Source of the DNA: Chlamydiia bacterium
GTDB taxonomy: Bacteria; Chlamydiota; Chlamydiia; Chlamydiales; Rhabdochlamydiaceae
Reading direction: 5' to 3'
Assembly (NCBI GenBank): GCA_963804085.1
Contig: CAWDOQ010000019.1
Location: forward strand, 315,403 to 379,402
Length of the DNA stretch: 64,000 nucleotides
The notes below the pieces were generated by a model. That model did no database searches. It was not told the DNA's origin and saw only the letters and a program-made list of their open reading frames with translations. The stretch's first letter is position 1. Every line of letters begins with the position of its first letter. A program made the translations under genes and the position numbers. Below, piece after piece: positions 28,200-31,572 of this stretch.

Positions 28200-28605
28200 T
28201 CAGATGTCTCCCAAGTCTCCTGATACGTGCCCGCGCGCGTGCCCGTGCCCGTGCCCGAATCTTCTCTTTTGTGCCATCTTGATTAACATAGAGACAATTC
28301 TCAATAATAAGTTTTCGTCCCTCGTTGTATTGGTTCTCTTCAATCGATTGTAGACTTTTGCAGACATCCAGGATTCCAGCAGACTCTGTTGCAGAACGCT
28401 TTGCCATGCGATAAAATCTGCATTTTTCATTGATTGAAAATTCACCAGCCCCTTCGGCAATATTCAAAGGAATCGAAGAGCTGGCGCGTTGCAACTGATC
28501 AGCCAAATAATTTTTGCCTCTGGGCATATGTTCTATAATTTGACCTGACAAAACAACAAATTCGATAGCTGTCTTATAAACATCGAGCTTTTCATGATCA
28601 AACAT
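28200..28605 (-). CDS. Four-helix-bundle protein (23S rRNA IVP / TIGR02436 / Avd-like) with one frameshift
   Basis: HEKLDVY, LADQLQRASSSIPLNIAEG, FYRMAKRSATE, with GGAG RBS. The family-type C-terminus LLLRIVSMLIKM lies in the +1 frame after an A4 run (28312-28315). Confidence 0.88.
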
Positions 28606-28655
28606 TATATCTCCAAAAAATTCGGGCACGGGCACGGGCACGCACACGGGCACGT
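28225..28655. repeat. Family A 36-bp inverted arms bracketing the four-helix-bundle gene
   Basis: 28225-28260 and 28620-28655 are reverse complements with 2 mismatches. Confidence 0.95.
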
Positions 28656-28723
28656 GATCGTGATACCGATTGCCGTAAATAGGGCAAAGTTGGCAAGCTC
28701 TTGTTTTAAAAACAAGGACAAAA

Positions 28724-29725
28724 ATGACACAAAAACCCGTCGTACTCACAGGCGATAGACCGACAGGCCCCCTGCATTTAGGCCACTACGTCGGCTCTTT
28801 AAAAAATCGATTAGAGCTTGAAGAGAAATGCACCCAGTACGTCATGATCGCCGATGTGCAAGCGCTCACTGACAATGCGGAGAACCCTGAAAAGGTGCGG
28901 CAGAACGTCCTGGAGGTCGCGCTCGACTACCTGGCCGTCGGACTCGATCCTGCAAAGACCACCATCTTCATCCAATCTCTGCTTCCGGCTCTGTTTGAGC
29001 TGACACTCTACTACCTCAACTTAGTCACCTGGAACCGCTTAAAGCATAACCCCACCGTCAAACAGGAGATCCAGCAAAAAGGGTATGGCGAAAGCGTGCC
29101 TGCAGGCTTTATGGTCTATCCTGTCAGCCAAGCCGCCGACATCACAGCGTTTAAAGCAGATCTTGTCCCGGTGGGAGAGGACCAGCTTCCGATGATCGAG
29201 CAGACAAATGAGATCGTCCGCCACTTTAACCGCATCTACAAGACCGATGTCCTGGTCGAAGCAAAAGCCCTGATTCCAAAAACGGGTAGGCTGCCCGGCA
29301 TCGATGGAAAGGCCAAGATGAGCAAGAGCTTGGGCAACTGCATCTATCTATCCGATAGCGCAGATGCTGTCGCAAAAAAGGTTAAAAGCATGTACACCGA
29401 CCCCGGACACTTGCGCGTAGAAGATCCCGGCAAGGTAGAAGGCAACCCCGTCTTCACCTACCTCGATGCATTTGACACAGACATAAATGCACTAAACGAG
29501 ATGAAAGCCCACTACCAGAGAGGCGGCCTCGGTGACTCAATCGTTAAAAAACGTCTCTTAGATGTGCTGCAAGCCTTCCTAGACCCCATTCGCAAAAGAC
29601 GCGAGGAGTTTGCCAAAGACCCTCAAGCTGTGATGCAGATTCTGATGCAAGGAACAGAAAAGGCACGCAGAGTCACCTCGCAGACGCTTGCCGACGTCCG
29701 CAAAGCCATGCACCTCGACTATTAA
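28724..29725 (+). CDS. trpS: Tryptophan--tRNA ligase
   Basis: [25 protein letters not shown]. Confidence 0.97.
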
Positions 29726-29747
29726 CCGAAACTAAGAAAAGAAAAAT

Positions 29748-29774
29748 AACAGGATGGCAGGATCAGCAGGATAG
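29748..29774 (+). repeat. Family C solo arm (CAGGAT units)
   Basis: AACAGGATGGCAGGATCAGCAGGATAG, matching the arm type at 51139-51243. Confidence 0.6.
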
Positions 29775-29796
29775 AAGAAAGACTTTTTCTCTCTTC

Positions 29797-30120
29797 TTAA
29801 TCCCGCTCAGCTCGAGCAAGCCATGCATAGACATCAAAATAACGATCCAAGTCTTCGAGTGATGTTTGAAATTCGTCGCTGCCAAGAGCAGCTGCTGCAA
29901 AGAGTTCGCGCACTCGCAAGATCTCTCTTAGGCGTCCCTTCCACCGTGGATCTTCGACCGTGAGATAAAACAAGTCTAAGGCACGAGTCACGGCACCCCA
30001 ATAGCGCGCATGGTTTCCTTTGGCACGCAGAGCGCGACTGACCTCGCTGCCAATATTTGCCAACTGCTCAACGAGAGAAAATTTTGCCCAACTAGCTTTG
30101 GCGGCTTCTAAATGTTCCAA
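29797..30120 (-). CDS. Small all-helical hypothetical protein
   Basis: 107 aa with W..FSLVEQLANIGSEVSRA motif. Directly downstream of the DUF5674-like gene. Confidence 0.75.
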   Translation of the reverse strand: MEHLEAAKASWAKFSLVEQLANIGSEVSRALRAKGNHARYWGAVTRALDLFYLTVEDPRWKGRLREILRVRELFAAAALGSDEFQTSLEDLDRYFDVYAWLARAERD

Positions 30121-30128
30121 TCCTGACG

Positions 30129-30476
30129 TTATTTGACCAATTCGTTGACGATTTCTTGAATTTTTTGGCGGATCGCAGGATCGTCTACTCCTCGAGAATC
30201 ATTGCCTTGAGATGGTCTAAGGTTGATCATAGAATCGTATTCGATCCACTCATCATCAGATTGCTGCAGATATAAATTAATTCCCCAGAGATCCGCTTGT
30301 TTTGACCCGTTCTCTAAGAGGATCTCCTCTCCATCCGAATGCATGGTCATTCCCGCAACCATAATTGCGCGCTCAATATCGACAACCGCTTTTACTAAAG
30401 CGCCATGCTTATTTTTCAGTTCCAGATCTTGCAGGTCTGCTCTTGGGACTTGTTGCTCAATGATCTTAACAGGCAT
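30129..30476 (-). CDS. DUF5674-like protein
   Basis: KAVVDI, MHSDGE.ILLENGS.Q.DLWGINLY and IEYDSMINLRPSQGN motifs. Confidence 0.78.
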   Translation of the reverse strand: MPVKIIEQQVPRADLQDLELKNKHGALVKAVVDIERAIMVAGMTMHSDGEEILLENGSKQADLWGINLYLQQSDDEWIEYDSMINLRPSQGNDSRGVDDPAIRQKIQEIVNELVK

Positions 30477-30565
30477 ATCGCTCCCTTGTAAATTCTCAGA
30501 ATAGCATCACATGTTATGAGAACGCAATCGTCTTTCCGCTTTCAGCCTGCTCCAAAGCATTGGAG

Positions 30566-30762
30566 GAGAAAGCAACGGACGGGGCCCCCACGGACACACG
30601 GACTAGAGCGGACTTGCACGGACGAACTACGGACAAAAACGGACAAGGGCCCCAAAGAATAGCTAGCTCTTTGTCCGTTGGCCCCCGTCCCTTTACGTCT
30701 ATTGTTCGTCCGTGTTTTGTCCGTAAAAGTCCGAGCGTCCGTTGGGGCCTCTTCCAAATTGG
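30566..30762. repeat. Family B element, left direct-repeat copy
   Basis: About 195 bp, ACGGAC units then GTCCGT units. Roughly 90% identical by eye to 31378-31572. Confidence 0.95.
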
Positions 30763-30850
30763 AGGTAGAGAGACGTGTTAAATTTTTCTATGGGATAAAT
30801 AAAAAAGTTTTTGTAGATTTGCTTCGTTTTGCCTTAACGAGAGATGCAAA

Positions 30851-31417
30851 ATGGATAGCTTGATTCCAAAACATGGAGGCTTTCGCAAACTGAAAACTTT
30901 TCAGCTTGCGCGGCTTGTCTATGACATTACTATGCGGTTCTGTGACCGGTATATCAAAGGCCGTACTCACGATCAGATGGTTCAGGCCGCTCGCTCGGGG
31001 GTCCAGAACATTGCCGAGGGCAGCCAAGCTTCGGGAACTTCGAAAAAGACAGAGCTCAAGCTGACTAATGTGGCGCGCGCAAGCCTTGAAGAGTTGCGGC
31101 TGGACTATGAAGATTTTCTGAGGCAGCGACGGGCTTTGCCGATGGGATGATTTTGATCCGCGACGAAAACAAATCGCCACGCAGCGTATCGATAGCGCAG
31201 ATCAATTTGCTTTATGGGCAAAGAAGACCGCACGTAAAGAAGAGGAGATTGCAGAAACTGCCGCCAACGGGATGCTCGCGCTTCTCTCTATGACTTGCCG
31301 TTTTCTCGACCGACAACTAGCTGCGCAAGGAGAGGCATTCAGAAAGAAGGCGGCTTTACTGAGCGGCTTTATCGTATGAGAAAACAACGGACGGGCCCCC
31401 ACGGACGCACGGACTAG
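30851..31417 (+). pseudogene. Four-helix-bundle protein with suffix domain (TIGR04258-like), two frameshifts
   Basis: HGGFRKLKTFQ, THDQMVQAARSGVQNIAEGS, LTNVARASLEEL..DYEDFLRQR. Continues as WDDFDPRR...AANGMLALL...LDRQL after a shift near 31130, and as KEGGFTERLYRMR after a shift near 31340. Stop TAG 31415-31417 lies inside the repeat. Confidence 0.85.
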
Positions 31418-31572
31418 AGAACGGACTTGCACGGACGAACAACGGACTAAAACGGACGGGCCCCAAAGAATAGCTAGCTCTTTATCCGTCGGCTCCCGTC
31501 CGTTTACGTCCATTGTTCGTCCGTGTTTTGTCCGTGCAAGTCCGTGCGTCCGTTGGGGCCTCTTCCAAATTG
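31378..31572. repeat. Family B element, right direct-repeat copy
   Basis: Shares GGGCCCCAAAGAATAGCTAGCTCTTT centre and GGGGCCTCTTCCAAATTGG end with 30566-30762. Confidence 0.95.

Follow-up and report, generated by a model that had tools for sequence, protein, structure and literature searches.

The stretch of DNA analysed here, which we call the window, has a length of 64,000 nt and corresponds to positions 315403-379402 of contig C19 in the assembly of a Chlamydiia bacterium (G000: 2.13 Mb, 47.9% G+C, 24 contigs, 91% complete, 5% contaminated). It contains two small genes, A and B, which code for four-helix-bundle proteins of the family PF05635 and are found inside or beside arrays of short repeats. 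Their neighbours are a Ser/Thr protein kinase gene (Pkn), trpS, a DUF5674 gene and a membrane protein gene. The first-pass annotation of this DNA had distinguished two different genes of this fold, each with its own kind of repeat, and both do score above the PF05635 cut-off. We think it probable that genes A and B are one kind of selfish cassette, similar to the intervening sequences (IVS) of 23S ribosomal RNA (rRNA) but located outside rRNA, that the repeat arms travel with the gene, and that the gene-less hairpins of this genome derive in part from such cassettes.

Cassette A lies between two host genes: Pkn is downstream of it (25420..28197, reverse strand; Pkinase E 1.2e-44) and trpS is on its other side (28724..29725, forward strand; tRNA-synt_1b E 1.8e-55). 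Gene A (28258..28605, reverse strand) belongs to the short type of these genes and is frameshifted at about 28309. In profile searches the region 28201-28605 of the reverse strand matches PF05635 with E 3.7e-22 and 79 bits (cut-off 33.8), and the gene matches TIGR02436 with E 3.3e-19 and 69.1 bits (cut-off 24). An alignment of open paralogues (n=3) also matches PDB 2GSC (XCC0516) with E 7.6e-11. The gene had been described as enclosed by arms of one repeat family (family A), and this is the case: it is inside the 359-nt loop of a 36-nt inverted repeat (C19:343627-343662 pairs with 344022-344057) whose arms are 94% complementary. In the orientation of the gene the 5' arm is a (CGTGCC)n-type array (28620..28655, reverse strand; Tandem Repeats Finder (TRF) gives period 6 and 5.3 copies), and the 3' arm is a (GGCACG)n array (28225..28260, reverse strand), found in the inverted-repeat census and in the pairing of the folded RNA. 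The fold of the 451-nt cassette RNA has -177.1 kcal/mol, as compared with -121.1 (sd 5.5) for shuffled sequences (z -10.2); its predicted stem has about 45 pairs without a break and encloses the open reading frame (ORF). Terminal inverted repeats which form a stem around an S23p ORF are the mark of an IVS, and gene A has them. The 3' arm is translated as (RA)n and the frame then continues into the kinase ORF of Pkn; this fusion is due to the frameshift or to an assembly error. Contigs of the soil metagenome run X1, about 95% identical to the window, have a one-base deletion at 28309 and inserted bases behind 28262. When these indels are applied, gene A becomes an open frame of 139 aa with the tail ...DSGTGTGTRAGT... 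The copy of gene A in contig C7 of the same assembly is also open: it has 115 core residues and a tail encoded by the arm.

Gene B (30851..31417, forward strand) belongs to the suffix type, in which a TIGR02436 region is followed by TIGR04258, and has frameshifts near 31129 and 31339. Its first 99 codons (30851-31147) match PF05635 with E 7.5e-9 and 36.2 bits (cut-off 33.8) and TIGR02436 with 39.3 bits (cut-off 24). The next frame (31143-31376) matches positions 1-32 of the 49 in TIGR04258 with 32.6 bits, below the cut-off of 40 because the frameshift cuts the match; the open relatives L099 and L119 reach 68.2 and 67 bits. The third frame (31295-31417) contains the end GGFTERLYR. The gene is spread over three frames and must therefore have two frameshifts. 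X1 contigs lack one base at 31129 and have extra bases behind 31339; with these two indels gene B is an open frame of 188 aa which ends in ...EGGFTERLYRMRKQRTGPHGRTD, with the motif EGGFTERLYR at its end. The suffix-type protein P0001 has no match in PDB. Gene B had been placed between elements of a second repeat family (family B), and these are indeed two complete palindromes, direct copies of each other. B1 (30575..30760, forward strand) has the structure (ACGGAC N4-5)n, loop, (GTCCGT N4-5)n, with a fold of -101 kcal/mol (z -7.0). B2 (31385..31572, forward strand) overlaps the end of gene B and has a fold of -115.7 kcal/mol (z -11.2). Each of them has about 190 bp, with about 7 ACGGAC units 9-12 nt apart on one arm and GTCCGT on the other. 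They are complete palindromes rather than single arms, and the enclosing stem of the IVS type is present only in part. The last frame of gene B stops at a TAG within the first units of B2; together with the (RA)n tail of gene A, this agrees with the earlier remark that both reading frames run into their repeat.

Altogether three indels break genes A and B in the window, and X1 comes from a related strain which lacks them; they may be strain differences or assembly errors. The assembly contains the same region a second time: contig C7 (14.5 kb) is a second haplotype, which matches window positions 24238-30535 at 98.4% identity over 6306 bp. Over 24238-31988 the two haplotypes are 96-98% identical and differ in their cassette content, so that at least two strains are mixed in the assembly. 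The homology is lost at 30535, no more than about 40 nt outside B1, and is back at 31574, no more than 2 nt beyond B2. In the place of gene B contig C7 has a different block of about 3.3 kb, in which a suffix-type gene of 80% similarity precedes a hairpin of GTGGAC instead of ACGGAC units. It also retains about 30 nt as the remnant of a gene-B cassette of the ACGGAC type.

The association of gene and repeat is general. Relatives of the short type were collected by a scan with the alignment of the three open paralogues, each species being represented by one genome; this gave 289 relatives, of which 79 loci were kept. The flanks were compared by the best local alignment of 250 nt upstream with the reverse complement of 250 nt downstream, a score >= 20 being taken as positive. 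This test was applied to 69 loci, 40 from the species scan (genome G001, which has about 100 copies, was entered once) and 29 from a sample of Chlamydiota; 68 were testable. Inverted arms flank 50 of the 68, while only 2 of 240 control windows displaced by 600 or 900 nt are positive. Thirteen loci were common to both collections and were taken out by hand: of the 55 distinct short-type loci left, 39 have inverted arms. Repeats thus flank these genes well beyond background, as the first-pass annotation had expected. The genomes include Chlamydiota, Legionellales, Coxiellaceae, Verrucomicrobia and Desulfobacterales; their arms are arrays of CGTGCC, CGAGCC, CGTGCT/CGTGAA, CGTTTA, CGGTAA, GCCCTT, GCCCAT or CCGAGA.

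The type of protein also predicts the type of repeat, another expectation which has held. We counted repeat dimers within 300 nt of each gene. Dimers of the hexamer type are found in 36 of 54 short-type loci, in none of 21 suffix-type loci and in 4 of 125 background windows; for dimers of the GGAC type the figures are 0/54, 14/21 and 2/125. The suffix-type protein is present in 30 of 401 sampled Chlamydiota genomes. In full-length loci the arrays of GTGGAC, ATGGAC or GTCCAT start a few codons past ERLYR and often form a hairpin; L105 has arrays on both sides of the gene, like gene B of the window. RYGGAC dimers are lacking in seven suffix-type loci. A divergent clade, whose end motif is GGLRERMTRAR, accounts for most of them; several of its loci have AAGGAC/GGGAC arrays instead, and in L119 the gene is enclosed by two arms.

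The repeat period is a further character of each clade. In 88 genomes from the phylum of G001 we found 30 PF05635 loci of other clades, most of them flanked by inverted arrays of 7-nt or 8-nt units such as GTTTTCA, AAAGGTG, AGGAGTC and AAGGCAC. The best autocorrelation period is 6 or 12 in 38 of 41 loci of the short clade and 7 or 8 in all 20 loci of the other clades in that phylum. The sole short-like locus in this last sample (L185) has period 6, and so have the copies of G001 itself: the period tracks the clade of the protein and not the host. Each clade therefore has a characteristic period and motif: 6/12 and CGTGCC-type for the short type, 9-11 and GGAC-type for TIGR04258, 7/8 for the other clades. 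Gene and arms are inherited together across phyla, most simply as one insertable unit, and a gene and arms inherited in this way would co-vary in any case. A chance co-occurrence of genes and repeats was also considered. It is ruled out by the flank-score controls, by the separation of the dimers and by the motif counts of the window, in which GCCCGNGCCCG occurs 10 times and ACGGACN5ACGGAC (up to 1 mismatch) 7 times, with 0.07 expected in each case.

The unit is an insertion, typically located at the junction of two host genes. A comparison of filled and empty alleles in related genomes had been suggested as a check, and such alleles are found at three sites. Throughout the family Pkn and trpS are adjacent and divergent. 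Of 11 related loci examined, 8 have both genes; four of these eight have a spacer of 25-49 bp and the others of 143, 144, 221 and 1336 bp, while in the window it has 526 bp. In all 12 relatives compared, the genes mnmE and nth either abut or share 1-16 nt. In contig C10 of G000 they are separated by 580 bp with the cassette of a short-type paralogue; both host frames are kept and no target duplication is evident at the junction. The third site, rnc-radA, is found in three states, depending on the genome. The two genes overlap or abut in G017, G007, G005, G002 and G016; G006 has a gene-less hairpin of 168 bp between them and G014 a full cassette of 478 bp, whose arms and inner junctions are homologous to the hairpin of G006. 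Both elements have the same arm orientation and share the inner junctions ...GGGCACGAAAGA and GGACTT...TCTTTCGTGCCCG, so that the gene-less form looks like the full form minus the gene. The G014 cassette is directly downstream of the RNase III gene (G014:C6:276968-278019, locus L214) and G017 has a gene-less hairpin just upstream of its RNase III gene (C11:2085-2617, locus L208); this position beside RNase III may be a coincidence. Some joints in the DNA contigs of the four sequencing runs compared with the window bypass gene A (28251->28622 and others). They were rejected as empty alleles: their sides are 22-27 nt long and the loop is that of gene-less hairpins, and we take them for hairpins of other loci.

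The cassette can multiply, as demonstrated by G001. This genome (4.26 Mb) has 98 PF05635 matches, most of them with an open frame of 120 codons, and its arm sequence has 104 forward and 106 reverse matches, as compared with 1 + 1 for a reversed-pattern control. The spacing of the arms across the gene is typically 381 nt; a few copies are shorter, with internal deletions. The same arms are present in 38 of 39 loci, at 13 and 11 nt from the ORF. Alignment of 39 copies gives a conserved unit of about 562 bp, which reaches 55-75 bp past the arms; close to either end it has small stem-loops, similar to each other and in direct orientation. Some copies are placed head to tail. No terminal inverted repeat or target duplication is seen in the aligned copies, with no duplication at 38 of them. 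An open frame of 115 codons is kept in 35 of the 39, with a mean difference of 1.3%. The ratio of nonsynonymous to synonymous polymorphism (pN/pS) is 0.69 (52 distinct changes), which is near neutral and not decisive on selection. G001 also has 20 Y1_Tnp matches. Cassettes decay by frameshift and deletion: besides the frameshifts of the window and the deleted copies of G001, genome G181 has a gene copy with two stops.

In G000 the situation is different: hairpins are many and genes are few. A census of inverted repeats (arms >= 20 nt, loops up to 1500 nt, non-overlapping) gave 238 of them in 2.13 Mb. Sorted by motif, 44 are CGTGCC, 42 GCGCCCGC (period 12), 23 RYGGAC and 16 CAGGAT; ten further families follow and 49 are unclassified. 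There are at least 15 families. Those with short units include CAGGAT, GACGCAAA, CCGTTA, GACC and AATGCA, while GGAGTGCGGCGAC, AAACAGTAGAAG and GTGTATAACAC are not periodic and have loops of 300-430 nt with no clear gene. Profile search finds 6 PF05635 matches in G000. All four short-type copies are in 359-509-nt loops of short-unit inverted repeats; they represent three independent loci plus the C7 haplotype copy. The arm units of the three loci differ: CGTGCC in one, GCGCCCGC plus a purine run in another, GCCTGT in the third. A gene of another family, PDDEXK_3 (PF13366), with one in-frame stop, occupies the 381-nt loop of a 53-nt inverted repeat (G000:C4:46918-47404, locus L203), so that a second family of small genes uses the same packaging. 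Its arms contain CACAGAGG-type units, which also form gene-less hairpins elsewhere in G000. Arm pairs around whole host-like genes are found at C8:30970-32451 and C17:176414-177826.

We have compared the presence of genes and repeats in the 401 Chlamydiota genomes. A genome was considered rich in the hexamer if it had >= 20 matches to CGTGCCCGTGCCCG with up to 1 mismatch, and rich in GGAC if it had >= 5 arrays of three RYGGAC units; the reversed-pattern control of the hexamer is nearly identical to the repeat and of little use, while that of the RYGGAC arrays gives 0-1 per genome. The short-type gene is present in 21 of 34 hexamer-rich genomes and in 27 of 366 others, the suffix-type gene in 9 of 11 GGAC-rich genomes and in 21 of 390 others, counts which were made by hand from the tables and ignore the relatedness between genomes. 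The earlier suggestion that copy number follows the gene agrees with this enrichment, but not with the largest repeat populations, which are in genomes without the gene. The two genomes with most RYGGAC arrays, G136 (231) and G251 (244), have no suffix-type gene; G140, with 408 hexamer matches, has suffix-type genes only and no short-type gene; G136 and G324 have large hairpin populations and no PF05635 match at all. These counts weigh against a strict dependence of the repeats on the protein.

We favour the following picture. A small PF05635 four-helix-bundle gene is physically coupled to inverted arrays of short repeats, and these pair as a long hairpin, either enclosing the gene or forming a complete palindrome at its end. 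In the transcript RNase III would cut the stem, by analogy with the 23S rRNA IVS which carry an ORF: parts of PMC4990558 report such cutting for the IVS with S23p. The cut would free a small messenger RNA and leave the flanking host cistrons usable, and this would explain how an insertion between translationally coupled genes is tolerated. An RNase III gene is found in 29 of 30 relatives. It may also be that the protein acts on its own arms. The dispersed gene-less A and B hairpins would descend in part from cassettes, persist and probably multiply without the gene.

Several results weigh against this picture, in addition to the large populations without gene. By the criteria used no repeat was found in 16 of 55 short-type and 7 of 21 suffix-type loci, some of them at contig ends. 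An 11-nt loop, TCCGGATTAAT, is common in either orientation to most gene-less hairpins of the two kinds found in family A (A1 and the period-12 A2) and is not present in gene-bearing copies; simple deletion from the copies seen can therefore not be the origin of most gene-less hairpins. A tblastn search (E up to 5) of the other hairpin loops of G000 gave no remnant of a decayed four-helix-bundle gene. Neither a terminal inverted repeat beyond the arms nor a target duplication or transposition chemistry was identified in the G001 copies and at mnmE-nth. RNase III itself was not found with PF14622 or PF00636 in the 91%-complete assembly of G000.

The cassette may be moved by its own protein or by a Y1 transposase in trans; it may also spread by recombination between arms or insert into older hairpins. 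The first-pass annotation preferred the protein: each four-helix-bundle protein would recognise its own periodic repeat, as RNA or DNA, and process or spread it, in a system like that of REPIN (REP doublets forming hairpins; REP, repetitive extragenic palindrome) and RAYT (REP-associated tyrosine transposase), but built on a protein which is not a transposase. We consider this rather unlikely, although the pairing on which it was based is general. The pairing of clade with motif and period is strict, and the period is kept while the unit drifts (CGTGCC, CGTGCT, CGTTTA, GCCCTT, CCGAGA), which suggests a constraint on geometry. The related protein Avd is a small basic pentamer of helical bundles which binds nucleic acid and a partner enzyme. 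Genome-level enrichment and the frame kept open in 35 of 39 copies of G001 also agree with a protein which spreads its repeat, and the nearest solved relative, 2GSC, is a pentameric ring according to parts of PMC4990558. However, linkage alone predicts co-variation, and several facts weigh against a dependence of the RAYT kind: the largest repeat populations lack the gene, and more than 100 hairpins persist in G000 although the genes of its window are broken by frameshifts. The near-neutral pN/pS of G001 also speaks against such a role of the protein, in which no catalytic motif or known DNA-breaking domain is seen. In a more specific form, which we find doubtful, PF05635 proteins would bind their own arrays by period and motif as a self-propagating system without transposase, whose ring directs the processing or the copying of the stem. 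If this were true, its products would include the rRNA IVS and many unexplained short-period hairpin repeats between genes.

Two further explanations leave the protein aside. Some insertion sequences target palindromic units, and in a similar way the genes could be passengers which land in or near hairpins, the latter being independent elements of the REP kind or of the kind of miniature inverted-repeat transposable elements (MITEs), or host terminators. Gene-less hairpins do outnumber genes in G000 (about 80 of family A and 23 of family B, against 6), they share a conserved loop absent from gene-bearing copies, they thrive in genomes without the gene, and a PDDEXK_3 gene is found in a hairpin of short repeats too. 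We nevertheless judge such an origin unlikely. In G001 nearly every arm pair bears a gene (98 gene matches for about 105 pairs), the link of arm period to protein clade extends to other phyla, and the gene-less hairpin of G006 retains junctions which are internal to the G014 cassette. Furthermore, most relatives have no insertion at these sites and their host genes overlap there, which leaves no place for an older terminator. As to mobilisation in trans, gene and arms would be carried as cargo by an IS200/IS605-like element which is not autonomous and depends on a Y1 (HUH) transposase encoded elsewhere. With about 100 copies and 20 Y1 matches in one genome this is a live rival. In G001 the unit extends about 55-75 bp beyond the arms, has similar stem-loops in direct orientation near both ends, lacks a terminal inverted repeat and a visible target duplication, and occurs in tandem. 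We judge this explanation very unlikely. At the chlamydial loci read by eye there was no sign of the structures at the outer ends of the G001 unit, and the coupling of arms and gene across phyla would be left unexplained. The only Y1/IS200-like transposase of G000 (PF01797, E 4.8e-27; C17:57700-58364, locus L204) is enclosed by 63-nt REP-like arms of a different type, a textbook RAYT-like arrangement; these arms form only 4 inverted pairs in G000, as compared with the much larger families A and B.

The selfish cassette which we favour resembles several known systems. The closest are the IVS of 23S rRNA: the protein family is the same (PF05635 is the '23S rRNA-intervening sequence protein'), the ORF is in a stem loop of terminal inverted repeats, and the distribution is sporadic, suggesting horizontal transfer of a selfish passenger whose ORF is maybe dispensable. 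Parts of PMC4990558 describe IVS with S23p ORFs in Coxiella burnetii, Leptospira, Xanthomonas and Brucella. The cassettes studied here differ in that they are inserted between protein-coding genes and not in rRNA: the window has no rRNA match and two tRNAs only, and none of 20 related loci has rRNA. Their arms consist of short units in tandem, whose period depends on the clade; in another architecture complete palindromes are found at the end of the gene. There are dozens of dispersed gene-less hairpins, and about 100 copies of the cassette in G001. Stem cutting by RNase III has been reported for the IVS; for the cassettes it is a prediction.

The REPIN-RAYT system also has a gene in one or few copies, with inverted flanks of a repeat which is dispersed as hairpins, and a pairing of clade and repeat. 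It differs by its Y1/HUH transposase, while genes A and B have no PF01797 match, by a fixed palindrome of 20-30 nt with a conserved cleavage motif instead of periodic arrays, and by the repeat populations, which here are largest in genomes without the gene. MITEs and the palindrome-associated elements of the IS200/IS605 group are short, structured and present in many copies, they lack their own transposase, and gene-less derivatives outnumber full copies; the G001 unit is similar to them by its subterminal stem-loops and the absence of target duplication. However, no full cassette encodes a transposase, and arm period and motif track the clade of the cargo protein across phyla. The Avd protein of diversity-generating retroelements has the same fold family as genes A and B, but here the gene is alone inside a hairpin, with no pair of template and variable repeats and no RVT_1 match in G000. 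It had been stated that no transposase or reverse transcriptase is nearby, which is confirmed: no transposase domain is found in the 8 window ORFs scanned, the sole Y1 gene of G000 is on another contig, and the RVT_1 search covered the whole assembly.

PF05635 is named in PMC10053308. A treatment of the family in the paper on the HEPN superfamily was looked for and not found: PMC3710099 has no passage with bAvd, 23S, S23 or intervening. The genome paper on Waddlia describes many repeats > 200 bp and does not mention hairpins or palindromes. In the literature outside subscription journals no paper was found which ties the PF05635 family to flanking short-period arrays beyond rRNA. Parts of PMC4990558 list two untested ideas on the origin of IVS, a "remnant of transposition" and a "mobile element whose ORF serves mobility". 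The same gene-in-hairpin unit outside rRNA now offers concrete test objects for the origin and mobility of the rRNA IVS which bear an ORF. It also gives a large orphan protein family its first consistent genomic context, and suggests an origin for part of the dispersed hairpin repeats of short period with which genomes such as G000 are crowded.

The same repeats are found without a gene elsewhere in the window, where 9 further loci of family A and 2 of family B had been listed. All of them are present, but in family A three or four are single arms and not hairpins. Two gene-less hairpins are of type A1, one at 6150..6215 with the loop CCGGATTAAT and one at 50550..50655 with the structure (TGCCCG)4, about 45 nt, (GGGCAA)n. 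Three are of type A2, with GCGCCCGC-type units and period 12: 4359..4456 (self-complementarity score 63.5), 13393..13505, with a 39-nt loop which contains CGGATTAAT and a purine run, and 55876..55952, with the common 11-nt loop. Family B has hairpins at 24048..24190 (ATGGAC/ACGGAC units) and 43805..43919 (GTGGAC/ATGGAC units, score 37). The other loci of family A are at 11414-11446, 15998-16030 with 16350-16372, 20053-20150 and 39283-39315. Some of them are single arms; in other cases about 320 nt without a recognisable gene separate two arms, or a CGTGCC-type arm adjoins a GCGCCCGC-type arm back to back. A scan for signals gave 5 promoter-like sites (2.7 expected) and 9 terminator-like sites (4.4 expected), counts which are not informative.

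Some neighbouring features may be added. Between trpS and B1, at 29797-30476 of the reverse strand, the DUF5674 gene (E 5.8e-32) is adjoined by a 107-codon ORF with no family match. In one X1 contig position 29725 is joined to a palindrome of family B (listed as 31385), and this pair of genes may be absent in the X1 strain. Contig C7 has an additional partial copy of the DUF5674 gene, 97% identical. At 32022-37709 the reverse strand has an ORF of 1895 codons, presumably two UvrA units fused head to tail, a candidate assignment made from the translation. Outside the window, the same contig has a 665-nt loop between the arms of a 47-nt inverted repeat with GACGCAAA-type units (G000:C19:197913-198671, locus L205); we take one frame of this loop to resemble a leader peptide of the nitrile-hydratase type.

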